Sequence record: SRR31156797_9257
Length of the DNA: 38,288 nucleotides
Strand: one strand, 5' to 3'
The translations under genes and the position numbers were made by a program. Numbering within the stretch: the stretch's first letter is position 1; every line of letters starts with the position of its first letter. The notes under the pieces are model-generated. The model ran no database searches. It saw only the letters and a list, made by a program, of their open reading frames with translations, and had not been told where the DNA came from. Below, in pieces: positions 441 to 24,539 of this stretch.

Positions 441-2528
441 ATGTTAAAAGGCATACAGATATTTAATTCCAAACTCGCGATTCCTATCGTGCTATTGATG
501 ATACTTGCAATGGTTATCTTGCCCTTGCCTGCTATCTTGCTCGATGGATTCTTCACTTTTAACATTATGCTCGCCATCGTGGTTCTGCTGGTAAGTAGCA
601 CTGTAAAGCGCGTTCTCGACTTTTCCGTATTTCCTTCGTTGCTGCTCATTGCGACACTGCTTCGTCTTACGTTGAACGTTGCCTCTACACGTATCGTACT
701 TCTTGAAGGTCATAACGGTGGTGATGCTGCCGGTAAGGTTATCCAGTCGTTCGGTGAAGTGGTTATCGGCGGTAGCTACGTTGTTGGTATCGTCGTATTT
801 ACCATTCTGATGATCATCAACTTCGTGGTTATCACCAAAGGTGGCGAACGTATTTCTGAAGTTTCTGCTCGATTCACACTTGATGCCCTTCCGGGTAAAC
901 AGATGGCAATCGATGCCGACTTAAACTCCGGTAACATCGATCAAGAACAAGCTCGCCTGCGTCGTAAAGAAGTCGGTGATGAAGCTGAATTCTATGGTGC
1001 GATGGATGGTGCGAGTAAGTTCGTTCGTGGTGACGCCATTGCGGGTTTGATGATCCTATTCATCAACTTGATTGGTGGTGTACTGATCGGTATGTTCGAG
1101 CATAACCTCACCGTTGCGGATGCATTCCAGACTTACGCCCTACTCACCATTGGTGACGGTCTTGTCGCTCAGATCCCATCACTATTACTCGCGACTTCTG
1201 CCGCAATCATCGTTACCCGTATCAGTGATAACGAAAACGACATTGCGCAGGTAGTTAACAAGCAGATTCTGGCTTCACCTTCTGTTCTTTATATGACTGC
1301 TGGTGTGATGTTTGTTATCGGTAGTGTGCCAAATATGCCTCACCTGGCGTTCTACACCTTCAGCTGTACTATCGGTTTTGTTGCGTGGCGGCAAAGTAAG
1401 AAAGACGACCATATAGAGCAGAAACTTAAGGAAGATGTTGAAGCACCGATTGATAACAAATCATTAAAGGAACAACCACTCGACTGGGGAATTATCCCGG
1501 CTGTTGATGCAATTGCTCTGCGCTTAGGTTTTAAACTCGTTCCGCTGGTCACAAACAAAGAACAAAACTCACTACTGAAAAGTATTCGCGGTTGTCGTAA
1601 AACGTTAAGTGAACAAATTGGCTTTGTGATTCCTGAAGTGGTGATTCGAGACGATTTAGCACTTAAACCTGCCGAGTACGTTATTTTGGTCGATGGCGAC
1701 GAAATTGAACGCGGAGATGTGTATCCGGATATGCTGATGGCCGTTGGCCCAGGTGTGACTTCTGCTAATTTAGACGGCACATTAGGCGTCGATCCTGCGT
1801 ACCGCCTTCCAGCTCTCTGGGTGAGTAAAGAAGACAAAACCAAAGCCATCAACTTAGGCTTTCAGGTCATTGATATTCACGATGTCATCGCAACGCACGT
1901 CAGTAAGGTGTGTACCGAGCATCTGGATGGAATCTTTAACTACGATGACGTTAAAGCACTGAATCTGCGGTTGTCGCATGAACATCCAGAGCTAGCAGAA
2001 AGCCTATCGACCACCATTACGCCAAACCTGCAAATGATGGTCATTCGTCAATTGTTAGCGGAACAAGTGCCTATCATTAACGTACGTACCATTGCTAACA
2101 CGTTAATTGAGAGTGGCGACAAGATTAAAGATCCAATCCTACTGGCATCGAATATTCGCGTTGCGTTAAAGCGTACTATCTTGAATTTGGTATCTCCACA
2201 TTCAAAAGCACTGAATGTGTTTACCTTAGGTGGACAAGTCGAACAGGACATTAAAGCTGGCATTACGCTCGCTCAACAGAACGACCCCAACACACCACTG
2301 GACGGCGTGCCACTCGCTCCGGAAATTTTGCAAAAGTTCCAGAACCGTATGCCTTCTATAGTGCAGACGATGCAGACTCAAGGTATGACACCCGTTCTGT
2401 TAGTCACGCCAATGGCTCGCCCTATCATCAGTAAACTGGCGAGAGCGTTTGCTAAAGGACTGATTGTTCTGTCGTTTAATGAGATTCCTAACGAGTATCA
2501 GATCAACCCGTTGGGTCAGATAGATTAA
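441..2528 (+). CDS. flhA: Flagellar export gate protein FlhA (lateral type)
   Basis: FPSLLL..TL.RL.LNVASTR, ITKGGERISEVSARFTLDALPGKQMAIDADL and FYGAMDGASKFVRGDAIAG motifs; 695 aa. Confidence 0.97.
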   Translation: MLKGIQIFNSKLAIPIVLLMILAMVILPLPAILLDGFFTFNIMLAIVVLLVSSTVKRVLDFSVFPSLLLIATLLRLTLNVASTRIVLLEGHNGGDAAGKVIQSFGEVVIGGSYVVGIVVFTILMIINFVVITKGGERISEVSARFTLDALPGKQMAIDADLNSGNIDQEQARLRRKEVGDEAEFYGAMDGASKFVRGDAIAGLMILFINLIGGVLIGMFEHNLTVADAFQTYALLTIGDGLVAQIPSLLLATSAAIIVTRISDNENDIAQVVNKQILASPSVLYMTAGVMFVIGSVPNMPHLAFYTFSCTIGFVAWRQSKKDDHIEQKLKEDVEAPIDNKSLKEQPLDWGIIPAVDAIALRLGFKLVPLVTNKEQNSLLKSIRGCRKTLSEQIGFVIPEVVIRDDLALKPAEYVILVDGDEIERGDVYPDMLMAVGPGVTSANLDGTLGVDPAYRLPALWVSKEDKTKAINLGFQVIDIHDVIATHVSKVCTEHLDGIFNYDDVKALNLRLSHEHPELAESLSTTITPNLQMMVIRQLLAEQVPIINVRTIANTLIESGDKIKDPILLASNIRVALKRTILNLVSPHSKALNVFTLGGQVEQDIKAGITLAQQNDPNTPLDGVPLAPEILQKFQNRMPSIVQTMQTQGMTPVLLVTPMARPIISKLARAFAKGLIVLSFNEIPNEYQINPLGQID

Positions 2529-2544
2529 ACCCATTCCAATACGC

Positions 2545-2573
2545 AAAAAGGCTTCTCAATGAGAAGCCTTTTT
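2545..2573. terminator. Bidirectional intrinsic terminator between flhA and flgA
   Basis: AAAAAGGCTTCTCA-A-TGAGAAGCCTTTTT inverted repeat between convergent genes. Confidence 0.9.
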
Positions 2574-2596
2574 TATCCGCTGAAACCTTGAACAGT

Positions 2597-3277
2597 CTAT
2601 CTTTGCTCTACACTGTTTTCGCCCGTCACGACAACACTCAGTTCACGGCCAGATTCAGAGTTCACCACTTTAATTCGATCACCGACCATTCCGTTTTCTA
2701 ACGCCACACCCATAGTTTCTAATGAGAAGCTTTGCGAACGAAACGTAATAGTCACGTGATGGCCTTTTGTTACCGTATGTGCCAGCTCCAAGTGCCTTTG
2801 CGTTAACACCTGATCCGCTCTGACTGAACGTCTTAAGCGGTTGCCGACAACATCTTCAATGTACTGGTATACCGTACCTTTTAGTCTCAGTGTTTCCATA
2901 CGAAGGTTCAGATCTTCCGCCACAATACGGTGACCTTTTTTGAGAGGACCTTTGGTTGCAACCACCTTGGTATCAATGCTCACTGTCGTAACAGCTTTGA
3001 CTCGCCACTCACTACCGCACTCAATCCACCAGGATTCCGTACCCAAGTAACTGTCATTGGCTTTATCGGAAAATAAAGGCCGTTCGCAAGCCGGCAAGCT
3101 GTTAACCGCGTTGGCTATTCTGAAGTTGATTTGCAGGTTTTCATAAGCAGAAAACCGCCCGTTAAGAGCAGTTTCAATTCGATGTGATAAGTATGATTCA
3201 ACTTGTTGCTGTGCAGAATCCGCCCATGCAGGCACACAGGCTATCAGAAGAGATAAGGGGAGCAGTGATTTACGCAT
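2597..3277 (-). CDS. flgA: Flagellar P-ring chaperone FlgA
   Basis: Signal peptide, Cys pair, SAF-like region, C-terminal G.ALE.G..GD.I.V.N..S.R motif. Confidence 0.92.
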   Translation of the reverse strand: MRKSLLPLSLLIACVPAWADSAQQQVESYLSHRIETALNGRFSAYENLQINFRIANAVNSLPACERPLFSDKANDSYLGTESWWIECGSEWRVKAVTTVSIDTKVVATKGPLKKGHRIVAEDLNLRMETLRLKGTVYQYIEDVVGNRLRRSVRADQVLTQRHLELAHTVTKGHHVTITFRSQSFSLETMGVALENGMVGDRIKVVNSESGRELSVVVTGENSVEQR

Positions 3278-3689
3278 TCACCTCTACTCGCAGAGACTCA
3301 ACAGCATCTTGAATCACTTGCTGTTGTTGCATCACCAATCGAGTATGTAAATCCGTTTTATTCTGACACTCTAATACAAGTTCATGGAGCTCGTCGGTCG
3401 CTTTCTTAATCGTTTCCTGAGCTTTACCACTCATTCGATGGATCAGTTCAGTGGCATAACGATTGTGGGTACAACCGAGTTGTTCTGCTAACGCTTTGCG
3501 CTCGAAGTGTAACTTGCGCAAAGATTCACTCAGATCCGTCGCCTTTTGGTTATATTCGCTCACTTTTTCATGGTCGAATTTCAAACTATACTGGCGAATT
3601 TCATCAAGCGTTGAAGATAATGTTTTTGCTACTTTTGCACTTTCTACAGTGGCTTGAAAGTAGACTTTTAACAGTTGTTTTTTATCCAT
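3270..3689 (-). CDS. flgN: Flagellar chaperone FlgN
   Basis: 139-aa helical protein directly after flgM, with an FlgN-like C-terminus (L..LV.ECQ.K...). Confidence 0.75.
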   Translation of the reverse strand: MDKKQLLKVYFQATVESAKVAKTLSSTLDEIRQYSLKFDHEKVSEYNQKATDLSESLRKLHFERKALAEQLGCTHNRYATELIHRMSGKAQETIKKATDELHELVLECQNKTDLHTRLVMQQQQVIQDAVESLRVEVNA

Positions 3690-3719
3690 TATCTTATTTT
3701 ACCCATCAGCCTTTATTCA

Positions 3720-3998
3720 TTAATCAAGGTTGGCTAGCACCTTAGCTAACTCACCCATATCAAATTTAATGCTACCGTCAGCAATTTTTTCTTTGATTTC
3801 AGCGACACGGGTAAAATCAACGTCATCCATTGCTTTTAATGATTCACTACCGGCCGCAATGATGTTTTGTTCGTGCATATTGATGTCTACTTGCTGTTTA
3901 GCAGGAGCAAGCGACTCTTGAGTGCTTTTCGTTACAGTTTGAGCGGCTGTTTGCACTTCTTGTAAACTGTAAACTGCGTTGTTTGCTTCAATTTTCAT
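3720..3998 (-). CDS. flgM: Anti-sigma28 factor FlgM
   Basis: MKI start; C-terminal VDFTRVAEIKEKIADGSIKFDMGELAKVL FlgM signature. Confidence 0.9.
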   Translation of the reverse strand: MKIEANNAVYSLQEVQTAAQTVTKSTQESLAPAKQQVDINMHEQNIIAAGSESLKAMDDVDFTRVAEIKEKIADGSIKFDMGELAKVLANLD

Positions 3999-4036
3999 GG
4001 TCGGCTCCTACCTATCGTTAATCTCTTCAATAATAC

Positions 4037-4065
4037 GTTACGGCAAAATTTTAAGATTTATTTCA
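4037..4065 (-). promoter_or_regulatory. Variant sigma28 (FliA)-like promoter, copy 2 (flgM)
   Basis: TGAAATAAAT-cttaaaat-TTTGCCGTAAC, 38 nt upstream of the flgM ATG. Confidence 0.7.
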
Positions 4066-5091: not shown

Positions 5092-5103
5092 GGAACCCTA
5101 CCC

Positions 5104-6123
5104 TTACGACAAGCGAATTTCGTTAGAAATACTGAGCTGAATCGTACCTTCGCCTTGCAGACGACGAACGATGTCCAGAATTTCCTTACGGGCTCCTTCC
5201 ACTTGGCTAACAGGTACCGCTCCGATACGCTGGATGTTCTCTTTCAACTGAGTGGCCAGACGGTTAGGCATGGTATTGAAAATGAACGCACGGTTTTCTT
5301 CCGGCAACCCTTTCATTGCAAATGCCCACTGCTCGATAGTCACTTCGTTGTTAATCACATCGATGGTTTCCTGACTCTGAGTAAACAGCGAATAGAAGTC
5401 GAACATCGCGTCCTGAATCTCTTCTGCCATCTTCTCATCACGTTCAGTAAGATAGTCAAAGATTGCTGTTTTATCACCTTGCAAACGGTTGATAATATCA
5501 GCAACAACCTTAGTACTCTTAATTGTCTGCGGCGCACCATCGTTGTAGTTATCACGACAACGGGTAATCAAATCTTTCAGCGTCTCAGTGATACCTGATG
5601 TTAACACCTGAGTTTGAGAGATCTGGTAAATCAGCTCATTGCACTCTTCGACACTGTATTGCTCTAGAACCTTCGACGCGTAGTCGAGTGGTAGGTGAGC
5701 CACCAGCAATGCCTGCATAGTGATATGTTCATGGCGCAAATCTTCAACCAGAATATCCGCGGGGATCCAAGCCAATGGTTCAGCATGGGTACGAATTTCA
5801 TCACCATAGATCTCTGAAACCAGATCTTTCGCCAGATTGCCGTTAAGCGTTTTATCCAGAACATTAGTCAGGTACTGACGCGTACCACCAATGATACCTG
5901 AGTGCATACGGAAATCTTCAAAGAAGCCAACAATAGAGCGCAGTGCATCATTGGCCTTGATGTCTTTCATTTTACTCATTGAGTGCGCTAAACGCTTGAT
6001 TTCATCATGCGTAAAGCCTTTAAGCACTTCCGAGCTGATATCTTCACCTAAGGTCAAGATAAGCAGTGCTACACCTTCAACATTTTGGTGAGCACTTCTT
6101 GAGTTTTCTATTTGTTCACTCAT
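5104..6123 (-). CDS. fliG: Rotor/switch protein FliG
   Basis: ALLILTLGED, MFDF, AMKG and GAVPVSQVE..RKEIL..VRRL..EG motifs; overlaps the fliF stop. Confidence 0.93.
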   Translation of the reverse strand: MSEQIENSRSAHQNVEGVALLILTLGEDISSEVLKGFTHDEIKRLAHSMSKMKDIKANDALRSIVGFFEDFRMHSGIIGGTRQYLTNVLDKTLNGNLAKDLVSEIYGDEIRTHAEPLAWIPADILVEDLRHEHITMQALLVAHLPLDYASKVLEQYSVEECNELIYQISQTQVLTSGITETLKDLITRCRDNYNDGAPQTIKSTKVVADIINRLQGDKTAIFDYLTERDEKMAEEIQDAMFDFYSLFTQSQETIDVINNEVTIEQWAFAMKGLPEENRAFIFNTMPNRLATQLKENIQRIGAVPVSQVEGARKEILDIVRRLQGEGTIQLSISNEIRLS

Positions 6124-7802
6124 GCATGCATCCAGGTTCTTAGAATTTCAGTTACACGCTTAGGATCATTTTGCGCAATCATCTTCAGATGTTGAATCTG
6201 AACTTCCAGCGGACTATCCGACTCCGGTAAGTTGTCATCCATTGCTTTAATTCCTGCAGCATCAAGGGACAGAGAATCCGAACTGTTTGGCAGTGCCGCC
6301 GCACCTGGGCCATTATCGGCTAGAGCTGCCATCTCAGCTGAGCCAGCTTCCAGCAGATTCTCACCTTCACTCTCTTGCTCTTCACCTTTCGTTAGGTACT
6401 GAGCCAGAGGTCGCAGAACCAATACGATCAATAACACCGCCACTAAAGCACCAAATAGGTATTTAACTGGCTGTAGAATGTCCTGATCTTTGTACCAAGC
6501 CAGTTGTTGTGCATCTGGCATATTTGAAGCAACAAACGGGAAGCTGGTCACGTAAATCACATCACCACGCTCTTGTTCAAAACCCACCGCGCTACGCACG
6601 ACATTTTGCATACGTTCCAACGTCGCATCTGACCATCCAGCCTCGCCAGCCATGCTTTCGTTCACGATCACAGAGATAGTCAGCTTTTCAACCACGCCCT
6701 GTTGATGCTGAACATGGGTGACTTTACCGCCGACGGCATATTCGCGTTTTGATTCGTTACGACTTGCTTTGGCCTTATTCGGCTGACCTTGTTCTGCTTT
6801 GGCCTCTTCATCCGTCACCGGAGGCGTATTACTCAATGCCCCCGGAATACCAAGCGCTAAACTGCCGTTGTTCTCATCGTTCATCAGCGTTTCAGCACGC
6901 ACAACAGGATTTGAATACGTCTCTTCAGTTTCTTGACGTTTTGAAAAGTCAACTTTGGCAGACACCTGAACTCGGAAGTTCGATGCGCCCATAATGGGGG
7001 TCAACATATCTGAAGCTTGAGAAACCAAGTGCTTCTCGATGTTACGACGATACTCAGTTTGACGATTGGTAGAAACCGCCAAATCATCCAGCGATGTGTC
7101 TTTTGATAGCAGGCGACCATATTGATCAACAACGCGGACGTTTTCAGCTTTCAAACCAATCACAGCGCCTGAAACCAGATTGACGATAGAATCCACCTGC
7201 CCGGCTTTTAGATCCATTCCTTCAATAAGCTGAACCATTACAGAGGCACGTGCTTGTTCTTGGTCTTTACGCTTAAACAGCGAAGCCTTTGGCACAGCTA
7301 AATGCACGCGAGCAACAGCGATCGATTCCATCGTTACAATACTGCGCGCCAACTCACCTTCAAGCGCGTGACGGTAACGTGCTGTTTCCATAAATTGGCT
7401 TTCACCCAACGAATCCGTACTCGCCAGAGTATCGAAACCACTAGGTAACTGCTGCTTAAGGCCTTTCGCCGCCAAGATCATGCGTGTTTTGGCGACTTCG
7501 TTCGTCGGCACCATGATTTGGCCGTTATCGCTATTCAGCTCATATTTAAGGCCAGACTGATCTAACAGTTGCAGTACCTGACTAGAGTCATAATTTGATG
7601 AAGTACTGTAAAGCGGGCGGTAGCCTTCTGCTGACGCCCAAAGCATAACGACAATGATCGCTGCAGAGATCATTGAGAATATTGTGATAATGACAACGTT
7701 ACGTTGCGAGCTGCTCCAGAACGACTTTACACTCTCCACGGCAGAATGTAATTTGTCGGACGCATTAGAAGCTACAACCGTAACCCCTTTCTCATTTGCC
7801 AT
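6120..7802 (-). CDS. fliF: MS-ring protein FliF
   Basis: Two TMs; ARYRHALEGELARSI, ARVHLAVPK.SLF and GIPGALSNTPP motifs. Confidence 0.96.
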   Translation of the reverse strand: MANEKGVTVVASNASDKLHSAVESVKSFWSSSQRNVVIITIFSMISAAIIVVMLWASAEGYRPLYSTSSNYDSSQVLQLLDQSGLKYELNSDNGQIMVPTNEVAKTRMILAAKGLKQQLPSGFDTLASTDSLGESQFMETARYRHALEGELARSIVTMESIAVARVHLAVPKASLFKRKDQEQARASVMVQLIEGMDLKAGQVDSIVNLVSGAVIGLKAENVRVVDQYGRLLSKDTSLDDLAVSTNRQTEYRRNIEKHLVSQASDMLTPIMGASNFRVQVSAKVDFSKRQETEETYSNPVVRAETLMNDENNGSLALGIPGALSNTPPVTDEEAKAEQGQPNKAKASRNESKREYAVGGKVTHVQHQQGVVEKLTISVIVNESMAGEAGWSDATLERMQNVVRSAVGFEQERGDVIYVTSFPFVASNMPDAQQLAWYKDQDILQPVKYLFGALVAVLLIVLVLRPLAQYLTKGEEQESEGENLLEAGSAEMAALADNGPGAAALPNSSDSLSLDAAGIKAMDDNLPESDSPLEVQIQHLKMIAQNDPKRVTEILRTWMHA

Positions 7803-7822: not shown

Positions 7823-8173
7823 CTAAACAGACATCTTGATGATGTCATTGAAGTTCGTCACCATCTTGTTTCGAACTTGCATTAATGCAGAAAAAGAAAG
7901 CTGCGCCTTCTGCGCAGCCACTGTCGCGCCAATCAGGTCGTCACTCTGACCTAGCTCAACTGCTGTAATTTTTGCTTCTGCAGTCTTTTGGCGGGCGTCA
8001 ACAGTATCAAAAATTCCTTTTAATGTGCTGCCAAACTCAATCCTTGAGGACATTCCTACGCGACTATCAGATATTTCGACAATATTAGTTAACGGGTTCT
8101 GAGTTATCGCCTGATTTTCCGCCAGACGATTGATCATTGATTGCTCAATGGCAGTTAACGCATTAATTTCCAA
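7823..8173 (-). CDS. fliE: Hook-basal body protein FliE
   Basis: QKAQLSFSALMQVRNKMV...DII.M.V. Start moved to the TTG at 8173, which follows an AAGGAG RBS (ORF track starts at 8212). Confidence 0.92.
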   Translation of the reverse strand: MEINALTAIEQSMINRLAENQAITQNPLTNIVEISDSRVGMSSRIEFGSTLKGIFDTVDARQKTAEAKITAVELGQSDDLIGATVAAQKAQLSFSALMQVRNKMVTNFNDIIKMSV

Positions 8174-8215
8174 AATCTTCTCCTTACACCTTTCTGTTTG
8201 AAAAGCATACAAAAA

Positions 8216-9049
8216 TTATTTTCTTACCAGTTCAATCTCAACGCGGCGGTTTTGGTCACGCCCTTGTTCTGTGCTGTTGGTTGCAATTGGATAACGTGAA
8301 CCGTGGCCTCTTAGCTCCATCATTTCTTCAGGCACGCCAGCCAGCATCATCCAATAAGAAACATCTTGTGCACGTCGTTTAGAGATACTTAAATTCACTA
8401 CGGTATCGCCATGACTGTCGGAGTGACCGCTGATCATGACCTTTTTAATCTTCTTATCAAACAGCACCAACTGTGAAATTTCTGCTAGCTGCTCTCTCTG
8501 CTCAGGCGTAATCGCTAATGCGCCGGATTTAAAATTAAATACGGTTTTACGCGCTTCCTGAAAGCTCACTGGCGGCAACGCAGTGGTACAAGTTTGGAAT
8601 GTACGTAGCGCTTCATCCATATTGGCCGTCGGGAACGTCACACTATGGAAGTCATCACGAATTGTCAGCCAGGCTCCGCCCATGACATCGCGGTAAACGA
8701 AATCAGCACCTTGCTGAACTTCGGCCGATTTTTTCTTACGAACAAACTCGGTCACCATAGTGGATTCATACAGGTTGTTCCCCCATACCGGTGGCTCGGT
8801 TTCAATCACCATACTGTCGTCAAACGAGCCAACACTACGACCAGAGATAACTAAAGTGATCGGCTTACCCGCCACAACATCAAACTCGGCGTTAATGCCA
8901 GAGTGCATGTCGTCCACAGATAAGTTACAGGTATCGTCTTTCTTTACCGCCTGCCAGTTCACCTCATCAAAAGGCACAACATAATCAGCAGCAGAAGAGA
9001 CAAAAGCAGCGCTAGATAGCGCTGCCATTATTAGGGCTTGGTATTTCAT
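8216..9049 (-). CDS. motY: MotY-like protein (MotY N-domain plus OmpA-type peptidoglycan-binding domain)
   Basis: Signal peptide, Cys pair, GHSD..G...N..IS..RA and N.T..GR..NRRVEI motifs; lies upstream of fliE as in lateral loci. Confidence 0.82.
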   Translation of the reverse strand: MKYQALIMAALSSAAFVSSAADYVVPFDEVNWQAVKKDDTCNLSVDDMHSGINAEFDVVAGKPITLVISGRSVGSFDDSMVIETEPPVWGNNLYESTMVTEFVRKKKSAEVQQGADFVYRDVMGGAWLTIRDDFHSVTFPTANMDEALRTFQTCTTALPPVSFQEARKTVFNFKSGALAITPEQREQLAEISQLVLFDKKIKKVMISGHSDSHGDTVVNLSISKRRAQDVSYWMMLAGVPEEMMELRGHGSRYPIATNSTEQGRDQNRRVEIELVRK

Positions 9050-13753: not shown

Positions 13754-13769
13754 ACAGCTAACCTTTTAC

Positions 13770-14555: not shown

Positions 14556-14575
14556 AATCTACCTATAAATTCTTG

Positions 14576-15310: not shown

Positions 15311-15312
15311 AA

Positions 15313-16521: not shown

Positions 16522-16538
16522 AATTAAACTCTCTAAAA

Positions 16539-17222
16539 TTAACTACTTTTCTCGCCGAAAGAGGCAATTTCGTAAAATGGGATATCACCGATACCGTTAA
16601 TGCTGACGACACTTGAGCCACCTGTAGATGGAATAGAAACCATCTCAACTTTTCCTTTTAAAGTGATCTCAGGAGCATAAGACTGACCTTCATCCAACAG
16701 AACTGCCATCGAGTAATTACCCTCTAAGCCTAATGCTGCGGTATCAATAGAAAAATCTATCGAACCTGAAGGGTGGCTTCCCAAAGCGATGTTAGTCACG
16801 TTGCCTTGCTCATCCGTCAGTTCAAGCGTCACAGTGTTAGATGGGGAAGTCAGTTCGATTGAACCATCAAACACTGTCTCGCCATCTGCTTTTAAGCTGT
16901 CTGTACGAACCGCCACGGTTTGGCCAACCAAATCTGCTGTGGTTAATACTTGCAGGTTATCCATCATGATTGCGTTGTTGTTCAAAATGGTAACCATGTT
17001 TTCAGTACTCTGCACCTGAGCAAACTGTGCCAATTGAGATACGTATTCAGTACCGTCTGCAGGGTTTAACGGATCCTGATTTTGAACCTGTGCCACCATC
17101 AAGGTAATAAACTGGTTGTACAGTGCATCTGCACTATTTTCGTTTGAGGTTACTGTGGTTGCAGATGTTGCAGCCGAAGTAACCTGAACGCTTGTATCCG
17201 CACCTGCTACTACTGTCGTCAT
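16539..17222 (-). CDS. flgD: Hook cap FlgD
   Basis: F..LMVAQ..NQDPLNP.D...Y.SQLAQF motif. Confidence 0.95.
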   Translation of the reverse strand: MTTVVAGADTSVQVTSAATSATTVTSNENSADALYNQFITLMVAQVQNQDPLNPADGTEYVSQLAQFAQVQSTENMVTILNNNAIMMDNLQVLTTADLVGQTVAVRTDSLKADGETVFDGSIELTSPSNTVTLELTDEQGNVTNIALGSHPSGSIDFSIDTAALGLEGNYSMAVLLDEGQSYAPEITLKGKVEMVSIPSTGGSSVVSINGIGDIPFYEIASFGEKSS

Positions 17223-17225
17223 TGA

Positions 17226-17651
17226 TTACACCTCCCAAATGCGCATCAGAGACTGTTGCATAGCTTTCACATTGCTCAGTACTTCAACGTTGGCTTCAAA
17301 ACTGCGGGTTGATGACATCATGTCTGCCATTTCATTCACAACATTAATACCAGTGTGGTAGACATAACCTTGATCGTTTGAGAGTGGATTGTTGGGCTCA
17401 TAACGAGTTTGAGCTAAACCATCCACCTCAATCACATCAGCAATTTTTACCGGTACTAAACCTTGATCTTTTTGCGCTGCTGATAATGAGTTGAATGCCG
17501 CCGAAAACACCGGCTTTAGAGGCTTGTAAACATCATTAGGATTACTTGCCACAGAGTCCGCGTTCGCTAAGTTGCTTGAAATGGTGTTCAAGCGAATAGT
17601 TTGCGCTGTCATGGCTGAGCCAGATGTTTCGTAAATGCCAGTAAAAGACAT
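17226..17651 (-). CDS. flgC: Proximal rod protein FlgC
   Basis: AQ..RLNTISSNLANADS, YEPNNP and NVV.EMADM....RSFEAN. Confidence 0.96.
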   Translation of the reverse strand: MSFTGIYETSGSAMTAQTIRLNTISSNLANADSVASNPNDVYKPLKPVFSAAFNSLSAAQKDQGLVPVKIADVIEVDGLAQTRYEPNNPLSNDQGYVYHTGINVVNEMADMMSSTRSFEANVEVLSNVKAMQQSLMRIWEV

Positions 17652-17696
17652 ATTGCACCTTAAATTAAAATACTTAGGGTTCTGGGTTCAGAACGA

Positions 17697-18044
17697 CTAT
17701 TGACCTTCAATGGCTCTTTTCAGCCCAGACACTTTTGATTTCAGGAACTGTAAACTTTGGTGATACTCCATACTGTTCTGTGCAAACCGAGCTTGCTCAG
17801 ATTGCAGCTCAACCGTATTGCCATCGCGTGAACGCTGCACAGGGATACGATACAAAGTATCGGTTTGAATTTGTGTTGATGACGTGCCGCCAATTTCAGA
17901 CATCACAGCATTAAACGTAATATCTTTTGCTTTGTAGTTTGGTGTATCTACATTGGCGATATTCGACGCTAACACAGCCGTACGTTCAGTACGGAACTGC
18001 AACATCGTAGGGTGAATACCTAATGCATCATCTAAACTAATCAT
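17697..18044 (-). CDS. flgB: Proximal rod protein FlgB
   Basis: LASNIANVDTPNYKAKD and DGNTVE...E...F..N...Y motifs. Confidence 0.96.
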   Translation of the reverse strand: MISLDDALGIHPTMLQFRTERTAVLASNIANVDTPNYKAKDITFNAVMSEIGGTSSTQIQTDTLYRIPVQRSRDGNTVELQSEQARFAQNSMEYHQSLQFLKSKVSGLKRAIEGQ

Positions 18045-18233: not shown

Positions 18234-18276
18234 TAGGGCTATTCCTATTTGAAGTAATAATCGCCTTATGTATAAT
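18234..18276 (+). promoter_or_regulatory. Putative activator box plus sigma70 promoter for the fliM operon
   Basis: TAGGGCTATTCCTA (18234..18247), N23, TATAAT (18271..18276); TTGAAG -35 at 18249 with a 16-nt spacer. Confidence 0.62.
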
Positions 18277-18329
18277 CGCCGCCCTATTTCCGAACCTCAT
18301 AATTCGATTTAGTTCTTTGGAGTATTTTC

Positions 18330-19091
18330 ATGCAACATATCGCAATAACCGATATTGGCAATCCAAAAATTGCCATTAAAAAAAGGATTATTGAGTTTCT
18401 TCAAGAACATGCGAACGTAATTAAACGTCAGCTACGTGGTACCTTCAACGGTGCACCCGTCCAAGTAGAGCCAAGAGATGAAGGCTCTTTAGAAGAAGAC
18501 TTACATGAAATATGCCTGGATATTAGTAATATCGGGGTTATTTCTTTTTCATTATCTAATAAGACTTTAGATAAGCTTTTCTGTAAACATCTGAATATTC
18601 CTACAAACATGTCAGATAGCAATGTGGGCAATATTTCGATTACAGTTTCACACAACAAATTCTTCGATCGTTTTGTTAGTAAAATAGTGAATTGTTTATT
18701 CCCAAACGAAAATATAAATACAATTCAATGTGAGAAAATAAAACGATCTGACATCAGAATTAATTGCGAGATCTCAGCGGGTGATCTAAACGAAACCATG
18801 TTTATTACCTTCAGTGAAGAAGCACTTAATTATTTTTCAAATGGTTTAAGAAAGAATAAACCATTCACCAAAAAAGACGTTGTGACTACCTTGAATCAAG
18901 TACCTGTAGATATCAACGCGATTCTGATGAAAACGGAATTATCACTTGATCAGGTTGATTCTATCTCGGTTGGGGATGTCATCAATTTGCAGAAAACGGA
19001 ACAAATTGACGTACAAGTCAGCGGTAACACGCTGTTTAAAGGTCAACTTGTGGTAGACGAACATGCTCAGCTAGGAGTGAAGTATGAGTGA
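18330..19091 (+). CDS. fliM: Highly divergent FliM (C-terminal SpoA domain)
   Basis: C-terminal L..VPV.I.A.L....LSL..V.....GDVI...V.V....LF.G; first gene of fliM-N-P-Q-R-flhB. Confidence 0.78.
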   Translation: MQHIAITDIGNPKIAIKKRIIEFLQEHANVIKRQLRGTFNGAPVQVEPRDEGSLEEDLHEICLDISNIGVISFSLSNKTLDKLFCKHLNIPTNMSDSNVGNISITVSHNKFFDRFVSKIVNCLFPNENINTIQCEKIKRSDIRINCEISAGDLNETMFITFSEEALNYFSNGLRKNKPFTKKDVVTTLNQVPVDINAILMKTELSLDQVDSISVGDVINLQKTEQIDVQVSGNTLFKGQLVVDEHAQLGVKYE

Positions 19092-19452
19092 TTTAGACCA
19101 ATTTGATGATCTTGATCTACTGAATGAAGATCTGGATTTTGACGCACAAGATTCAGCGCTGACTTCTAGTAAAGCGCCAGACACTTTAGATGCGCCGACC
19201 AGCAAATCAAACATTAGCATGCTGCGCGACATTCCTGTTGAAGTCACAGTTGAAGTCTCTCGCCGCAGCCTGCCGTTAAAAGAGGTGATGGCGATTGAAC
19301 CATCGTCGGTCGTGATGCTGGATAAGCATGAAGGCGAGCCAGTCGATATCAAAATCAACGGTGTATTATTTGGTACAGGAAGCATTATCACTAAGGATGG
19401 CAAATACGGCGTTCAAGTCTTGTCCCTTGTTGATAGTGGAAACCATGAGTAA
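19084..19452 (+). CDS. fliN: C-ring protein FliN
   Basis: DIPVEVTVEV, LDK..GEPVDI..NG.L...G and YGV motifs. Confidence 0.93.
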   Translation: MSDLDQFDDLDLLNEDLDFDAQDSALTSSKAPDTLDAPTSKSNISMLRDIPVEVTVEVSRRSLPLKEVMAIEPSSVVMLDKHEGEPVDIKINGVLFGTGSIITKDGKYGVQVLSLVDSGNHE

Positions 19453-20197
19453 AAAGCATTTAGGATGGCTTTTAGTCATCCTTTTTTTATTGTTGCCCAA
19501 CATCGCTTCAGCTGAGCAGGAACTGAGTTTATTTACGATAAACGACGCTTCTGGTTCCAGTGAGTATTCGGTAAAACTGCAAATTCTGATCCTGATGACA
19601 ATGCTGAGCTTCATTCCAGCATTCATCATCATGTGTACCTGTTTTACCCGAATCATCATTGTGTTAGGTATTCTGAGACAAGCTTTAGGTCTTCAGCAGT
19701 CACCACCGAACCAAGTGTTAGTTGGACTTGCGTTAATCTTTAGCATCCTCATTATGCGTCCGGTATGGACGGATATATACGAAAATGCTTACCAGCCTTA
19801 TGCAGCCAATGAAATCAGTCTGGTCGACGCACTTCAACGAGGAAGTGTACCGCTACGTGAATACATGCTGGATCAAACCCAAACGCAAACTCTTGAGCAA
19901 GTCACCAAAATCGCCGATGAACCCATGGCGGATAATCCAGAAGACATTCCATTTTTGGTGTTACTTCCAGCTTACGTTCTGAGTGAACTAAAAATTGCCT
20001 TCCAGATTGGCTTTATGGTGTTTCTGCCATTTTTGATTATCGACCTGGTTGTCGCATCGGTATTGATGTCGATGGGTATGATGATGCTATCGCCACTGAT
20101 CGTTTCTCTGCCATTTAAGCTACTGGTATTCGTCGTTGTTGATGGTTGGGGAATGCTGCTTGGGAGCTTGTCACAAAGCTTCTGGATAGGAGGATGA
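19445..20197 (+). CDS. fliP: Export gate FliP
   Basis: T.FTRIIIVL..LRQALG.QQ.PPNQVL, ELK.AFQIGF and SLPFKLL.FV.VDGW. Start set at ATG 19445, overlapping the fliN end. Confidence 0.96.
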   Translation: MSKKHLGWLLVILFLLLPNIASAEQELSLFTINDASGSSEYSVKLQILILMTMLSFIPAFIIMCTCFTRIIIVLGILRQALGLQQSPPNQVLVGLALIFSILIMRPVWTDIYENAYQPYAANEISLVDALQRGSVPLREYMLDQTQTQTLEQVTKIADEPMADNPEDIPFLVLLPAYVLSELKIAFQIGFMVFLPFLIIDLVVASVLMSMGMMMLSPLIVSLPFKLLVFVVVDGWGMLLGSLSQSFWIGG

Positions 20198-20198
20198 T

Positions 20199-20468
20199 AT
20201 GACTCCAGAAGTTTCTGTCACCATCGTCGCTCGTGCGCTGTGGGTAGTAGTTTCTATGGTATCGGTATTAATCGTACCCAGTTTGCTTGTGGGCTTATTG
20301 GTCGCTGTTTTACAGGCGGTCACCCAAGTCAACGAGCAAACACTCAGCTTTTTCCCTCGCTTGATTGTCACTATGCTCAGCATCATCTTTGGCGGGCACT
20401 GGTTACTAATGCAAGTCTCTGAGTTTTTTGAGTACATCTTTTTCACTGTACCCACGCTTGCTCAATAA
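20199..20468 (+). CDS. fliQ: Export gate FliQ
   Basis: VGL.VAV.QA.TQ.NEQTLSF.PRL motif. Confidence 0.96.
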   Translation: MTPEVSVTIVARALWVVVSMVSVLIVPSLLVGLLVAVLQAVTQVNEQTLSFFPRLIVTMLSIIFGGHWLLMQVSEFFEYIFFTVPTLAQ

Positions 20469-20486
20469 TCATTAAGAGCTGGCACA

Positions 20487-21260
20487 ATGCATGATTTAAC
20501 CTTCACACAAATAACAGAGTGGCTCGGCTTCGTTTGGTGGCCATTTGTGCGCTTCAGTGGTTTTTTCTTAGTGGTTCCCTTTTTTGGCGACACAAGAATT
20601 CCCGTGATGGTGCGTATTCTGTTATCGATGATTTTCTCCATCATGTGTGCCGGAATTATTGACAACGTACCTTCATTCAATCCGTTCTCAATCCAGGCGT
20701 TTGTGTTTGCAATTTACCAATTCAGCTTTGGCTTCATCCTTGGGATGATTGTGTTGCTGTTCATGAACATTTTTACTATTGCGGGTCAGGCCGTTTCGAT
20801 GCAAATGGGTCTGGCGATGGCGGTGATGAATGACCCGAGCAGTGGCGTGAGTGTTCCAATTACAGCGCGGATTTTTAGCATCACTTCGATGTTACTTTTG
20901 CTCTCATTTGATGCGCATTTAATTATTTTAGATATCTTCGTCGACAGCTTTCGCTATTGGCCGTTTGATACAGAGTATCCATTTGAGGGCATCAAGCATG
21001 TTCTCACTATGTTTGGTTGGATGTTCTCTTCTGCACTGATTATTGCCATTCCAGCCATGTTGACCATGATGCTCAGTAACGTGACGTTTGGCTTTTTGGG
21101 TAAAGTTGCCCCTTCTTTAAACATATTTACTTTGGGTTTCCCGATGACCATGCTTTTGGGGATGGTGGCACTTATGCTGTCCATCTATGGTGTCGGTGAT
21201 ATTTTCTTTGATCTGGTTAGCGAGATGCGAGACCACATGAACTATGTGTTGAGTCTGTAA
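20487..21260 (+). CDS. fliR: Export gate FliR
   Basis: AGQ..SMQMGL.MA...DP..G and AP.LNIF..GFP motifs; multi-TM. Confidence 0.95.
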   Translation: MHDLTFTQITEWLGFVWWPFVRFSGFFLVVPFFGDTRIPVMVRILLSMIFSIMCAGIIDNVPSFNPFSIQAFVFAIYQFSFGFILGMIVLLFMNIFTIAGQAVSMQMGLAMAVMNDPSSGVSVPITARIFSITSMLLLLSFDAHLIILDIFVDSFRYWPFDTEYPFEGIKHVLTMFGWMFSSALIIAIPAMLTMMLSNVTFGFLGKVAPSLNIFTLGFPMTMLLGMVALMLSIYGVGDIFFDLVSEMRDHMNYVLSL

Positions 21261-22379
21261 ATGAGCCAAGGGGATAAAACCGAACAGGCCAGTAGTAAAA
21301 AGCTCAGTGACGCGCGCGGCAAAGGCCAAATAGCGCGTGCGAAAGAGTTTACGACAGCTATTACCATGATTGTTGCGGTGAGTTATTTCTACATGTATGG
21401 CGGCGAACTGAAGAACGCCATCTTTATGCTGTTTGAAACTGCCTATACCTTCGACACTACCAATGTGTTCAACTTGGACCCGACCATCGAACTACTCGGA
21501 CAAAGCCTTTTCATTATCATCAAACTGTTCGCTCCCATGATGCTGTTCGTTGTGCTAACAGCGGTTGCAGCAAGCAGCATTTTGGGTGGTGTGAACTTTA
21601 ACTTTAGTCAAATCAGCCCGAAGTTCTCCAAAATTAACCCGATGGCTGGTATTAAACGTATTTTCTCCAAACAGACCTTTGTTGAGTTTCTCAAAAGCGT
21701 GGTTAAAATCGCCATCATTCTGTTTCTGCTTTATACCACGCTCAATAACAACGTTGGCGTGATTACCGGCTTAGTAAGAGCCTCTTTCCAAACAGTTATT
21801 CAGATTGCCTTTGGGAACCTGCTGACGCTAATCATCATGCTGATTTCTGTCGCGGTGATTTTTGGTCTGATTGATGTGCCTTATCAGAAAATGACCTTCA
21901 GCAAACAGATGATGATGTCAAAAGAAGAGCTTAAACAAGAGCATAAGCAGCAGGAAGGTAGCCCAGAGGTCAAAGGCCGTCGTCGTCAGATTCAGATGCA
22001 GTATGCCCGCAACTCAGCCAATAAAACGGTTCCTACCGCCGATGTAGTGCTAATGAACCCAACCCACTATGCCGTTGCGCTCAAGTACGATATCAATAAA
22101 GCAGAAGCTCCTTTCGTGATTGCAAAAGGTAAAGATGAAGTGGCCTTTTATATTCGTTCGCTGGCCGATAAACATGAAATCGAAGTGCTGGTTGTGCCGG
22201 AAATCACCCGATCGATTTACCACACCACGCAAATTAACCAGATGGTGCCGAACCAGCTTTATCTCGCGGTCGCGCAGATTCTTAAATATGTTCAGCAACT
22301 ACAGGCGTGGCGCAGTGGTCAACAAGCAAAACCGAACAAGCTGCCGAGTTTCACCATCCCTGAGAACTTACGTTATTGA
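21261..22379 (+). CDS. flhB: Export substrate-switch protein FlhB
   Basis: DKTE.A...KL..AR.KGQ, EG.PEVK.R.R and NPTH autocleavage motif. Confidence 0.97.
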   Translation: MSQGDKTEQASSKKLSDARGKGQIARAKEFTTAITMIVAVSYFYMYGGELKNAIFMLFETAYTFDTTNVFNLDPTIELLGQSLFIIIKLFAPMMLFVVLTAVAASSILGGVNFNFSQISPKFSKINPMAGIKRIFSKQTFVEFLKSVVKIAIILFLLYTTLNNNVGVITGLVRASFQTVIQIAFGNLLTLIIMLISVAVIFGLIDVPYQKMTFSKQMMMSKEELKQEHKQQEGSPEVKGRRRQIQMQYARNSANKTVPTADVVLMNPTHYAVALKYDINKAEAPFVIAKGKDEVAFYIRSLADKHEIEVLVVPEITRSIYHTTQINQMVPNQLYLAVAQILKYVQQLQAWRSGQQAKPNKLPSFTIPENLRY

Positions 22380-22421
22380 TACCAGCTCCAACAAAGACCC
22401 GATCCAGTAAAAAGAAGTGAC

Positions 22422-22448
22422 AAAAAAGCCAGCATCAAATGCTGGCTT
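22422..22448. terminator. Intrinsic terminator (U-tract on the minus strand, after the parR-like gene)
   Basis: AAGCCAGCAT-CAA-ATGCTGGCTT stem preceded by an A-run, between convergent flhB and parR-like genes. Confidence 0.82.
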
Positions 22449-22471
22449 ATATCGTTTCTTAGCGGAGCGGT

Positions 22472-23527
22472 TTAAAACACACCTTTCTTTTTCAGTTTCT
22501 GAACTTTTTCTAATCGTACTTCCACTGACTCTTGAGGCTCCCCAAGATTGGCAGGTTGCGTCACGACACCACCCTGCTGTTTGATTTGCTGCATCAGCTG
22601 ATTAATGAGCGTGTTCTGCTGCGTCACCACACTCTTAAGCTCAGCGATTTGCTGACCATGATCGAGCTTATCGCCAATGGCCTGAGCAATATCATGGCTA
22701 AGAGCTTGCTGATCAAGTGCAGAAACTTGTGAGGCGCCGGTTCCTAAACTCTGTTGATGTTCAATCAACTGGCTACTGATGATGGTGGCGATATCATGAC
22801 TAAGCGTTGATGTATCAATATCATTCGCTGCTGCCGAGCTTGGCATTAAGCTAATCAAATCACGCAGCGCCTGCTCATTTTCAGCGAACTTGCCACTCAT
22901 CGAATCGACGATTTCCTGGCTTAACGCCTGAGCATCTATTTTGTTTTCAAAACCAGAATTCGCTTGCGCAGAAATATGCTCGTATAACGACTGCTGATGC
23001 TGCGCTAACTGTGAAGTCATATGTTCAGTGATGTGACTAAAATCAGGCAGTTCAATGGGTGCTTCTGCGGGCAAGGTTAACTGAGACAAATGCTCGGAGA
23101 GTTTCATCTCAAGCAGGTGCTCGATCTTTTCAGAAACCGTATCAATCACAGAATCAACATCAGTCGTCGAGCTTTGTGCACTGTTTAACTGAGCGTTAAC
23201 TTGTTCAAAGCTCGGCTCAGGGGCAATCTGATGGACTTTTAGAATGTCTAATAAAGACTGCTCAGTAATCGAGTCATTAGAAAGTGCCGCTGCAAAACTG
23301 GTCGCCAACTCTGGCTTTAAGCAATGCAGGAACATACCACTCATATAGATATCTTTGTGGATATGAACTAACTGATGCAATTCCATCGCAGCGGTAGAAT
23401 CCGCTGCGAGTTCTTTACGCTTCTTCGACCAACCGATAAAGGTGTTGTAAGCAAAGCTATCTGGAATCGATTGCAATGGATCGAGGTAAATTGCCAGTGA
23501 TACGCGTTTAAAGCGCTTATTCATCAC
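22472..23527 (-). CDS. ParR/StbB-like adaptor with a long internal repeat insertion
   Basis: N-terminal K.R.....YL.P and SGM.LH.L.P.L motifs plus basic C-terminal tail (VRLEKVQKLKKKGVF) resembling plasmid ParR/StbB; directly downstream of parM; 351 aa. Confidence 0.7.
   Translation of the reverse strand: MMNKRFKRVSLAIYLDPLQSIPDSFAYNTFIGWSKKRKELAADSTAAMELHQLVHIHKDIYMSGMFLHCLKPELATSFAAALSNDSITEQSLLDILKVHQIAPEPSFEQVNAQLNSAQSSTTDVDSVIDTVSEKIEHLLEMKLSEHLSQLTLPAEAPIELPDFSHITEHMTSQLAQHQQSLYEHISAQANSGFENKIDAQALSQEIVDSMSGKFAENEQALRDLISLMPSSAAANDIDTSTLSHDIATIISSQLIEHQQSLGTGASQVSALDQQALSHDIAQAIGDKLDHGQQIAELKSVVTQQNTLINQLMQQIKQQGGVVTQPANLGEPQESVEVRLEKVQKLKKKGVF
22646..23056 (-). repeat. About four degenerate 35-40 aa repeats inside the ParR-like protein
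   Basis: IELPDFSHITEHMTSQLAQHQQSL / IDAQALSQEIVDSMSGKFAENEQAL / IDTSTLSHDIATIISSQLIEHQQSL / LDQQALSHDIAQAIGDKLDHGQQI. Confidence 0.75.
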
Positions 23528-23537
23528 CTATAGCCTC

Positions 23538-24539
23538 TTATTCGCTATCAGCATGGTATAGGCACATTTCCTGAGCGAGCGCAGATTGTGCGTTATCAAC
23601 CAGAATCACACGCTCACCTAACGATTGATAGGCGTTTTTCACTGCGTCAAAAATTAATGATGCACCACCACCCACTAAGTAAACACGGTTCGGGTTCTTA
23701 GCGAATTTCTTCGCTTCAGTGACGACTTGCTTACCCAGTTCGTGAATTTTTGCGTTCATTTTTTCACGAACCATCTCGATTTGAGACTCATCATTGATCA
23801 CTTCAGAAGCGAACTCATCATCTTCACGACGACGAATCAATTCATTAGCCACAAGGTAGCTTGAATCGCTATCAGCAAACGCTAATGCTTTACGAACCGT
23901 GTTGGTGACCATTGAAACGCCGATTTCATTGTTGCCGTAAACGCCAGATACTTCGTCGAATTCACCAACGACAATGCCCATATCCAGAGTTGTACCACCC
24001 AGGTCAATAACCAGAGAACGGGTAAACTCATTGCAGTTTGAGTTCACTAATGTTGAAAGAACAGCCGGTAAGCTTTCTGGCATTACTTCAACATCAACTA
24101 CATTGAACGTTTCACCCTTGTTTAACGTAATCTCACGCATCAAGTTTTGACGTTTACGCTCGATGTTCTTCTCGTTTTTCTGGCAGTCTTCAAAACGGTA
24201 GTATTCAGTAATCGGCAAAGTCACAACTAAAGATACGTCGCGAGGCTCTAGACCTGTTTGTAGCAGTGCATGGTGAACCGCCAATAAGTTAAGATCATCG
24301 TATTGATAATCCACATGGGTCGTTTCCAGTGCTTTGTCAGACGTCGCATCGTAAGTGTATTTAAAGCCATCAATGGTGTAGTTGTAGACTTTCTTGTCCT
24401 TTCTTAACGCTGCACTCTTCCAATCTTTTCTAAAAGAGTTTGGTGATACCAAACTTTTAATTTCACCGTCAGCCAGCCAACTTACTTTTACGTTTGTTGA
24501 ACCATCATCAACAGCAAATTTCATCAAAGTATTAGTCAT
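23538..24539 (-). CDS. parM: ParM/StbA-family actin-like ATPase
   Basis: VDDGSTNVK, SPNSF, AVHHALL, TLP.TEYY, VMPES.PA, IDLGGTTLD and VGGGA, matching plasmid R1-type ParM. Start set at ATG 24539 after AAGG. Confidence 0.93.
   Translation of the reverse strand: MTNTLMKFAVDDGSTNVKVSWLADGEIKSLVSPNSFRKDWKSAALRKDKKVYNYTIDGFKYTYDATSDKALETTHVDYQYDDLNLLAVHHALLQTGLEPRDVSLVVTLPITEYYRFEDCQKNEKNIERKRQNLMREITLNKGETFNVVDVEVMPESLPAVLSTLVNSNCNEFTRSLVIDLGGTTLDMGIVVGEFDEVSGVYGNNEIGVSMVTNTVRKALAFADSDSSYLVANELIRRREDDEFASEVINDESQIEMVREKMNAKIHELGKQVVTEAKKFAKNPNRVYLVGGGASLIFDAVKNAYQSLGERVILVDNAQSALAQEMCLYHADSE

Follow-up and report, generated by a model that had tools for sequence, protein, structure and literature searches.

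A distinct lineage of lateral-type flagellar genes in Vibrionaceae without fliH, fliI, and fliJ

The closest described relatives of the flagellar system considered here are the lateral-type systems of the Flag-2 family. In Enterobacterales the Flag-2 locus is reported to read lfhAB-lfiRQPNM-lafK-lfiEFGHIJ, lfgNMABCDEFGHIJKL, and lafWZABCDEFSTU, and LafK is described as a distinguishing factor of Flag-2 systems (PMC6993521). The canonical lateral (laf) system of Vibrio, represented by the V. harveyi chromosome 2 locus, encodes lafK between motY and fliE, and fliH, fliI, and fliJ after fliG. We analyzed a DNA stretch of 38,288 nucleotides (SRR31156797_9257), the whole of which is called the window below. 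It carries a lateral-type flagellar gene set in which none of these four genes was found. We name the lineage of this gene set T3 and use FliF as its marker.

Layout, distribution, and phylogeny of the T3 locus

Genes were assigned from the listing of open reading frames (ORFs) together with Pfam and NCBIfam scans of the window proteins. Between positions 441 and 22379 the window encodes 26 intact flagellar genes, in the order given by a preliminary description made from the sequence alone. As that description had it, they comprise a single minus-strand run of 15.4 kb (2597-18044), a divergent plus-strand run fliM-N-P-Q-R-flhB (18330-22379), and a solitary flhA (441-2528), with no lafK. The minus-strand run is transcribed in the order flgB-C-D-E-F-G-H-I-J-K-L, a MotY-like OmpA gene, fliE-F-G, a gene for a protein of 342 amino acids (aa), flgM, flgN, and flgA. 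Short FlgK and FlgL, a single-domain FlgJ, a motY, a FliM without its N-terminal peptide, and no fliO found in the window, which had all been taken as marks of a lateral system, were likewise borne out by the Pfam and NCBIfam scans and the protein lengths.

More striking than any of these features is what is missing from the export genes. Neither fliH, fliI, nor fliJ was found by Pfam or NCBIfam in the window, and all three are absent from the nine related loci that were read. The 342-aa gene, which is LafW-like, stands where the canonical Vibrio laf locus has fliH, fliI, and fliJ. It begins 12 nt from fliG, and motY is 3 nt from fliE; junctions this short leave no room for remnants of fliHIJ or lafK. 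Among the 39 window proteins there is no Sigma54_activat match, whereas in the V. harveyi control locus a sigma-54 activator of 444 aa is encoded in the interval from motY to fliE.

Like the canonical Vibrio laf system, T3 has short FlgK and FlgL, an FlgJ with only the rod-binding domain, a MotY, a FliM of about 250-270 aa, a LafW-like gene, and no FliO, and its relatives keep the same order from flagellin to motB. Unlike in that system, flgM, flgN, and flgA follow the LafW-like gene on the same strand and are not divergent from flgB, and flhA is detached from flhB. The MotY_N domain scores 25 bits in the window versus 64 bits in the V. harveyi control. T3 shares with enterobacterial Flag-2 a LafW-like gene and an FlhA of the same lateral clade (54% identity to that of Enterobacter sp. 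kpr-6), but LafK and LfiHIJ are absent and the operon order differs. A lafA-to-lafU-type operon, as in the Flag-2 family, is present in T3 relatives (G297, G303, and others), and its first gene starts at window positions 1-3.

We searched 401 Vibrionaceae genomes with the window FliF. A FliF 55-99% identical to it is encoded in 21 of them, and the next class reaches at most 45%. The layout was read in nine of the 21 (G395, G297, G303, G234, G330, G360, G015, G275, and G277). All nine loci match the window and lack fliHIJ and lafK, with flgN and flgA relocated in G015. A complete cluster in T3 order is also carried by a 341-kb MOBH mobilizable plasmid of V. breoganii FF50 (NZ_CP016179.1, 1-39918), whose annotation includes no fliHIJ or lafK and which gave no FliI match. 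The gene order noticed in the window thus recurs in every related chromosomal locus read and on one plasmid. As the plasmid FliF is only 42% identical to that of the window, 21 T3 genomes is a floor. No FliF at least 60% identical was found among PLSDB plasmids. The V. breoganii cluster starts about 3 kb from a ParA gene and adjoins a PL7 alginate lyase gene, and several of its proteins are annotated as hypothetical.

Identity between the window proteins and their canonical lateral counterparts in Vibrio sp. HA2012, V. harveyi, and V. hepatarius is 25-67%. For the phylogeny one protein, FlhA, was used in quick trees of 87 rows and, under a mixture model, of 30 rows, with supports from the Shimodaira-Hasegawa-like approximate likelihood ratio test (SH-aLRT) only. 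In the 87-row tree, 21 rows form a lateral clade (100% SH-aLRT) apart from 66 polar and other FlhAs. This clade has three parts: an Enterovibrio-type group (type C), Enterobacter Flag-2 with betaproteobacteria, and the canonical Vibrio lateral FlhAs with T3. The T3 FlhAs are a clade of their own (100% support), sister to canonical Vibrio lateral FlhA (97% for the pair), on a stem of 0.51 in this tree and of 0.5-0.7 overall. The 30-row tree agrees and places the V. breoganii FF50 plasmid FlhA inside T3, on a very long branch. Over the two trees the lateral clade comprises 21-22 rows. Given the separate clade and the low identities, the T3 proteins do not nest within ordinary Vibrio lateral systems. 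By these sequence comparisons, T3 is, as had been proposed, a lineage in its own right among the lateral-type (Flag-2 family) flagellar systems, and not a scrambled canonical laf locus. We found no description of a fliHIJ-less or a third lateral-type cluster in Vibrionaceae in open-licence papers and preprints; subscription papers may describe one.

The lineage probably split off from a forerunner of the canonical Vibrio laf system and then lost fliH-fliI-fliJ and the sigma-54 activator lafK. It would have moved flgAMN and the LafW-like gene behind fliG and separated flhA from flhB. Strong purifying selection would have maintained it from then on, whether as the second, the third, or the only flagellar system of its host.

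Type C is a third kind of lateral cluster in Vibrionaceae. It is contiguous and basal in the lateral FlhA clade, and its FlhA is about 50% and its FliF 36-40% identical to those of the window. Two such loci were read (G007 C1:110001-170000 and G070 C1:3510001-3570000).

The flagellin body, fliD, fliS, fliK, fliA, and motAB were not found in the window by Pfam or NCBIfam. Genome G395 is 87-89% identical in DNA across the whole window, and its contig reaches about 100 nt beyond the left end of the window. This extra piece codes for the N-terminus of a minus-strand flagellin, and the homologous frame begins MAISLHTNYANLV. Flagellin genes are divergent from flhA in G297, G303, and G234. Upstream of flhA, both G297 and G303 encode a Maf-type glycosyltransferase, flagellin, fliD, fliS, a FliT-sized gene, fliK, fliL, a sigma-28-type factor, motA, and motB, and in tblastn searches the flagellin-to-motB operon is also present in G234, G330, G360, G015, G275, and G277. 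Judging by these relatives, the window covers the genes for basal body, hook, C-ring, and export gate, and the filament and stator operon presumably lies just to its left. In G297 the interval between flagellin and flhA (L099:7835-13287) also encodes a NeuB, cytidylyltransferase, aminotransferase, and dehydratase set for nonulosonic-acid synthesis with a Maf-type gene, which implies that T3 flagellin is glycosylated in some members. G303 has the Maf-type gene without the sugar genes in this interval, and the window has neither there.

Flagellar export in T3 genomes

The contribution of FliH-FliI-FliJ to flagellar and injectisome export has so far been argued from engineered Salmonella mutants. 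Flagella are reported to form without ATPase activity once the proton motive force and substrate levels are raised (PMC4230889), and the export gate to be capable of running on Na+ if the ATPase complex is missing (PMC4778876). In the FliH/FliI(/FliJ) bypass mutants of these reports and of PMC7955116, the gate operates without the ATPase complex; FlgN and the cytoplasmic domain of FlhA play a part, and Na+ may serve as fuel.

Every candidate in ten T3 genomes was scored with the FliI/YscN family model (cut-off, 379.5 bits). G395 encodes one FliI-family match, in the polar locus on contig C4, along with two FliF and two FlhA. G297, G303, G234, G275, and G360 each encode two matches and three FliF. 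Of the two matches in each of these five three-system genomes, one is 1.8-3 kb away from the FliF of the canonical lateral system, and neither is near T3. The remaining four, G015, G099, G277, and G330, have no FliI-family match, the best scores (225-234 bits) being those of F1 ATPase subunits. Each of the four has one FliF and a single FlhA, of T3 type, making T3 the only flagellar system. No CheA was found in them, nor any FliH or FliJ over the cut-off; G099 gave two chance-level FliJ matches in very long ORFs. Assembly gaps are an unlikely cause of the missing FliI because G015 and G277 have megabase contigs. Family-wide, three FliF matches are present in 13 T3 genomes, two in four, and one in four, and FliF exceeds the ATPase matches by one in 20 of the 21.

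No FliF match (E≤1e-30) was found in 24 of the 401 genomes and no FliI-family match (E≤1e-100) in 28; most of those are listed in both groups, with sizes of 3.4-4.4 Mb. The sole-T3 genomes are similar in size to these, suggesting that T3 was either retained or acquired by a lineage whose polar flagella had been lost.

The reduced gene set is under selection. Relative to G395, the ratio of nonsynonymous (dN) to synonymous (dS) substitution is 0.00-0.17 for all 26 flagellar genes, highest in flgM, fliE, flgJ, and fliM, and 0.014-0.088 for nine flanking genes. Relative to G297, dS is saturated and dN is low. FlhB retains the NPTH autocleavage motif (residue 265). T3 and Vibrio lateral FlhA are 73% identical in the membrane domain and 46% in the cytoplasmic domain, compared with 65% and 53% between Vibrio lateral and Flag-2 FlhA, so the docking domain of T3 FlhA has changed out of proportion. 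At 19 columns T3 departs from a residue that no fewer than 90% of 77 other FlhAs share, and 12 of these columns lie within window residues 362-547. Three of the replacements, Y479F, V482I, and T486D in the numbering of E. coli FlhA (692 aa), adjoin T490; the plasmid copy also has D486. T3 resembles the Salmonella bypass mutants in keeping FlgN and in having lineage-specific changes in the FlhA cytoplasmic domain. The mutants are laboratory strains of reduced efficiency, whereas T3 is a natural, conserved gene set.

From the parts observed we infer, with a probability of roughly 0.7, that T3 works as a lateral-type flagellum of a distinct lineage whose export gate operates without an ATPase of its own. 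Its rotor would be built of FliF, FliG, the compact FliM, and FliN, and would be driven by MotA/MotB, known from the relatives, and MotY. FliPQR-FlhB-FlhA would export the rod, hook, and filament proteins by ion-motive force with no dedicated ATPase complex, and the chaperones FlgN, FliS, and FliT, which T3 has kept, would assist. A Na+-coupled FlhA engine would be a plausible power source in seawater. A further proposal, which we make tentatively and put a little short of even odds, is that T3 is naturally ATPase-free, with at least four Vibrionaceae species, those whose genomes encode no FliI, FliH, or FliJ, building working lateral-type flagella by ion-motive force alone, probably Na+-coupled via the altered FlhA cytoplasmic domain.

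Alternatively, T3 could borrow the FliH-FliI-FliJ of a co-resident polar or canonical lateral system and for that reason have been free to lose its own copies. Two or three FliF matches and at least one FliI-family match are indeed present in 17 of the 21 T3 genomes, and G395, the closest relative of the window, keeps its polar fliH, fliI, and fliJ on contig C4. In the four sole-T3 genomes, by contrast, the only FlhA and FliF are of T3 type and no FliI, FliH, or FliJ passes the cut-off, on megabase contigs in G015 and G277. The T3 genes in these genomes are full-length open frames. Borrowing is in our view unlikely.

Several observations weigh against a working flagellum with ATPase-free export. 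The evidence for a rotating filament is indirect (intact genes, dN/dS of at most 0.17, and weak RNA-library coverage), and the layout was read in only nine of the 21 T3 genomes. A further flagellar system that might lend its FliHIJ is present in 17 of them, and the four sole-T3 genomes also lack chemotaxis, which fits a non-swimming role. The family-wide ATPase tally scored four candidates per genome and includes injectisome ATPases; one genome, G378, is an exception to it with three FliF and three ATPase matches. D456 and T490 are unchanged in T3 FlhA, so the known bypass changes are absent and the Salmonella bypass is a parallel and not the same solution. In FlhB, the position that we take to be that of the Salmonella P28T bypass change alternates between P and A across all flagellar types and is uninformative. 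Contigs from four seawater RNA libraries of one study, 92-99% identical to the window, cover 23-28 of 30 bins, most of 441-20440, but this coverage, of contigs only, with no silent-region control and with DNA carry-over possible, is a weak hint.

A conserved natural system without FliHIJ would provide a wild-type model, this one being kept by selection in at least 21 species and the sole flagellar system in four. It would allow the study of ion-driven export, a search for compensation in FlhA, and imaging of a motor without ATPase density under the C-ring. If T3 is indeed naturally ATPase-free, evolution has stably achieved what bypass mutants of Salmonella manage only poorly. Three sets of flagellar genes are found in some Vibrionaceae, and some without polar flagella and chemotaxis keep one, which bears on the ecology of surface colonisation.

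The ParM/ParR-like neighbour

Next to the flagellar genes the preliminary description had placed an actin-like ParM/ParR pair. The ParM is genuine: its profile matches R1 ParM (1mwk, E 1e-84), and it shares 52-55% identity with plasmid-encoded ParM from Serratia and Providencia. A parR-like gene lies directly downstream of parM in eight of eight loci. The encoded protein, 228-352 aa depending on the species, has a kept N-terminus (RFKRVS..YLDP) and a kept C-terminus (VQKLKKKGVF) with a basic tail. Its links to known families are weak, namely 2jd3_A StbB (E 0.017) and an Atlas cluster (score 0.85) with PF10784 in 14% of members. Its AlphaFold model has a pLDDT of 48.8. The predicted complex of ParM with residues 290-351 of the 351-aa window protein scored 0.65 and one control 0.53, which speaks neither for nor against binding. 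The 351-aa neighbour may thus be called ParR-like, weakly and by architecture only. The middle of these proteins is internally repetitive, rich in Q, S, and A, helical, of low complexity, and variable in length.

Similar to R1 ParMRC, the locus has a full-length ParM match and, downstream, a protein of ParR-like layout, with its kept N-terminal domain and basic C-terminal tail. Unlike R1 ParMRC, the pair is chromosomal, the partner has a long low-complexity middle, and binding of ParM to it is putative. No parC-like iterons were found upstream, with no repeat family of more than two copies in 22380-24900, a region that was also read directly.

ParM at least 72% identical to that of the window is encoded in 47 of the 401 Vibrionaceae genomes, plus one split copy. 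It adjoins T3 flhB in five genomes (G395, G297, G303, G234, and G275). In 15 other genomes ParM is 25-31 kb from a 36-39% identical FliF on the same contig. In both of those read (G007 and G070), the ParM/ParR-like pair directly follows motB of a type C cluster; type C clusters carry FliI-family matches nearby (G054, G126, and G154). We read the pair as chromosomally fixed, of plasmid ancestry, and as a recurrent neighbour of lateral loci that is not a required part of T3. The adjacency reflects either old synteny or a functional tie. A bolder proposal is that the pair, found beside two types of lateral cluster, takes part in the spacing or inheritance of lateral flagella. We found no link between ParM and lateral flagella in the open-licence literature; subscription papers may hold one. 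An actin-like partition pair fixed on chromosomes as a recurrent neighbour is a separate small puzzle.

The preliminary description had seen in the pair a possible sign that the flagellar genes were delivered by a plasmid; ParM and ParR would then be the leftover of its partition module. The R1-type ParM, 52-55% identical to that of real plasmids, would suit this origin. Carriage of T3 on a plasmid is real: the diverged cluster lies on the mobilizable V. breoganii plasmid, its flhB end about 3 kb from the ParA gene. The argument from the pair itself is weak. The search for ParM came up empty in 14 of the 21 T3 genomes. ParM follows a different cluster type in G007 and G070, and in G326 and G150 no flagellar gene lies closer than 10 kb to it. 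Across about 40 other Vibrionaceae genomes it is 74-79% identical, which far exceeds the 36-42% of FliF. There is no iteron array in front of parM, and no PLSDB plasmid encodes a FliF at the 60% level. The GC content of the flagellar cluster (0.44-0.48) is close to that of its flanks (0.41-0.46), and the T3 locus lies on multi-megabase contigs in G303 (C1, 3.2 Mb) and G015 (C1, 3.07 Mb). Delivery by a plasmid is improbable on this evidence.

FliM, the LafW-like gene, and regulation

Pfam recognises in the window FliM (253 aa) only the C-terminal FliN-like domain. The AlphaFold model (pLDDT 79.8) matches Salmonella FliM 8umx_C (E 2e-11) and FliM middle domains, and the profile aligns over its full length with the 272-aa V. 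harveyi lateral FliM (E 1e-31). By fold and by profile it is a true FliM. The T3 FliM family is small, with 18 matches among 1.84 billion representative proteins, nearly all of about 250 aa, and is fast-evolving. Among 399 genomes scored, a small Gammaproteobacteria sample, the profile found no full-length match outside Vibrionaceae, V. harveyi G002 giving the only one; the other matches were to the C-terminal domain only. No N-terminal segment of T3 FliM resembles what we take to be the CheY-binding peptide motif, and rotation is for this reason probably not switched by chemotaxis. The short form is inherited and no novelty of T3, as the canonical Vibrio lateral FliM is equally short.

A short FliM and the loss of chemotaxis could also mean that T3 has been repurposed, as a secretion or adhesion organelle or a non-swimming surface structure in lineages abandoning chemotactic motility. 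Neither CheA nor polar flagellar genes are encoded in the sole-T3 genomes, and loss of the ATPase would lower export efficiency according to the Salmonella work (PMC4230889). Every part for torque and filament is nevertheless kept, with FliG, MotY, hook, and rod encoded in the window and flagellins, FliD, FliK, MotA, and MotB in the relatives. Purifying selection acts on all flagellar genes of the window, and the FliM is no shorter than that of canonical lateral systems, so we consider repurposing quite improbable. That T3 is a decaying remnant heading for loss after deletion of fliHIJ and lafK is very improbable: four canonical genes are missing, and partial flag-2 deletions are reported as common in Enterobacterales, where 22% of strains are short of one gene or more (PMC6993521), but the same reduced set occurs in all nine loci read, at FliF identities down to 55%, and on the plasmid at 42%, with no internal stops reported in the FliF and FlhA matches, the low dN/dS given above, and tight gene junctions free of pseudogene remnants.

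The 342-aa gene behind fliG has no Pfam or NCBIfam match. Its product is 25% identical (BLASTP E 2e-11) to that of the 346-aa ORF which V. harveyi has behind flgL in its lateral locus and scores 0.98 to Atlas clusters automatically named flagellar hook-associated protein or putative flagellin. In Flag-2 naming the gene at the position after flgL is lafW, a putative hook-associated protein (PMC6993521). We call the 342-aa protein a LafW-like putative hook-associated protein, a name given by position and the V. harveyi match and not by E. coli LafW. In T3 the gene would have shifted to the slot behind fliG.

Rewired regulation, as suggested in the preliminary description, is plausible: lafK is absent and a sigma-70-like promoter is predicted before fliM (Table 1). 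Both hexamers of this promoter are kept in the window, G395, G297, and G303; in G234 the first reads TTGAAC, followed by the same 16-nt spacing and TATAAT. The four sequences that keep both hexamers are also nearly alike over some 40 nt separating the flgB promoter from that of fliM, as they are in the candidate operator palindrome upstream of flhA and the sequence following it. This palindrome and the sequence after it have diverged in G234. FlgM is retained in T3, and relatives encode their own sigma-28-type factor. Transcription could start from sigma-70-type promoters under some regulator and then pass to the system's own sigma-28 and FlgM. A scan for sigma-54 promoters at up to two mismatches gave 28 matches in the window versus 39 expected, none of them in flagellar intergenic regions. 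The strict pattern was found neither in T3 loci nor in four control loci (three canonical, one type C); as canonical loci are also without matches, the scan does not discriminate.

The features of the T3 locus and its neighbour in the window are listed in Table 1. The fliP gene probably starts at 19445 because the long 5' end of its ORF overlaps fliN and the signal peptide begins at M40. The MotY-like protein is 30-40% identical to lateral MotY.

Table 1. Features of the window, by position (strand + or -; E values and bit scores are those of the family models named).
Feature	Coordinates	Strand	Remarks
Flagellin start codon	1..3	-	Gene runs off the left window end
Palindrome ATCAGA-N4-TCTGAT	326..341		About 100 nt upstream of flhA; candidate operator, from sequence
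flhA, export gate	441..2528	+	PF00771 E 2e-229; 59-60% identity to Vibrio lateral FlhA
flgA, P-ring chaperone	2597..3277	-	PF13144 E 3e-29
flgN, FlgK/FlgL chaperone	3270..3689	-	PF05130 E 4e-6 (below cut-off); position kept in relatives
flgM, anti-sigma-28 factor	3720..3998	-	PF04316 E 8e-7; TIGR03824 41.1 bits
LafW-like putative hook-associated gene, 342 aa	4063..5091	-	Occupies the slot of fliH in canonical loci
fliG, rotor	5104..6123	-	FliG_N, FliG_M, and FliG_C domains
fliF, MS ring	6120..7802	-	PF01514, PF08345
fliE	7823..8212	-	PF02049 E 5e-19
motY-like OmpA-family gene	8216..9049	-	OmpA E 5e-18; MotY_N E 2e-5, 25.0 bits versus a cut-off of 26.3
flgL, 301 aa	9056..9961	-	TIGR02550 over cut-off; short form
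flgK, 458 aa	9974..11350	-	TIGR02492 over cut-off; short form
flgJ, 193 aa	11353..11934	-	Sole domain PF10135 (rod-binding), residues 133-184; no muramidase
flgI, flgH, flgG, flgF, flgE, flgD, flgC, flgB	11934..18044	-	Pfam match for each
Sigma-70-like fliM promoter (predicted)	18249..18276	+	TTGAAG, 16 nt, TATAAT; ends 54 nt before the ATG
fliM, compact, 253 aa	18330..19091	+	No CheY-binding N-terminus
fliN	19084..19452	+	PF01052 E 2e-19
fliP (probable start 19445), fliQ, fliR, flhB	19445..22379	+	Pfam matches
Perfect 10-nt hairpin	22426..22448		Between the convergent flhB and parR-like genes; likely terminator
parR-like adaptor gene, 351 aa	22472..23527	-	Neighbour outside the flagellar set
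parM, plasmid-type actin-like ATPase	23538..24566	-	PF06406 E 5e-66; also PF21523

Beyond the flagellar genes, a near-consensus sigma-54 -24/-12 element with one mismatch lies at 34590-34605 on the plus strand, 144 nt before an ORF (34749-35297) for a 182-aa protein with a weak OmpO/Ax21-family match. G395 and G297 carry the same 16-mer. These two genomes also keep a gene pair of the same flank (32129-34577, plus strand), a hybrid sensor kinase with receiver, cyclic-nucleotide-binding, HisKA, and HATPase domains, and a 172-aa receiver-only gene that it overlaps.

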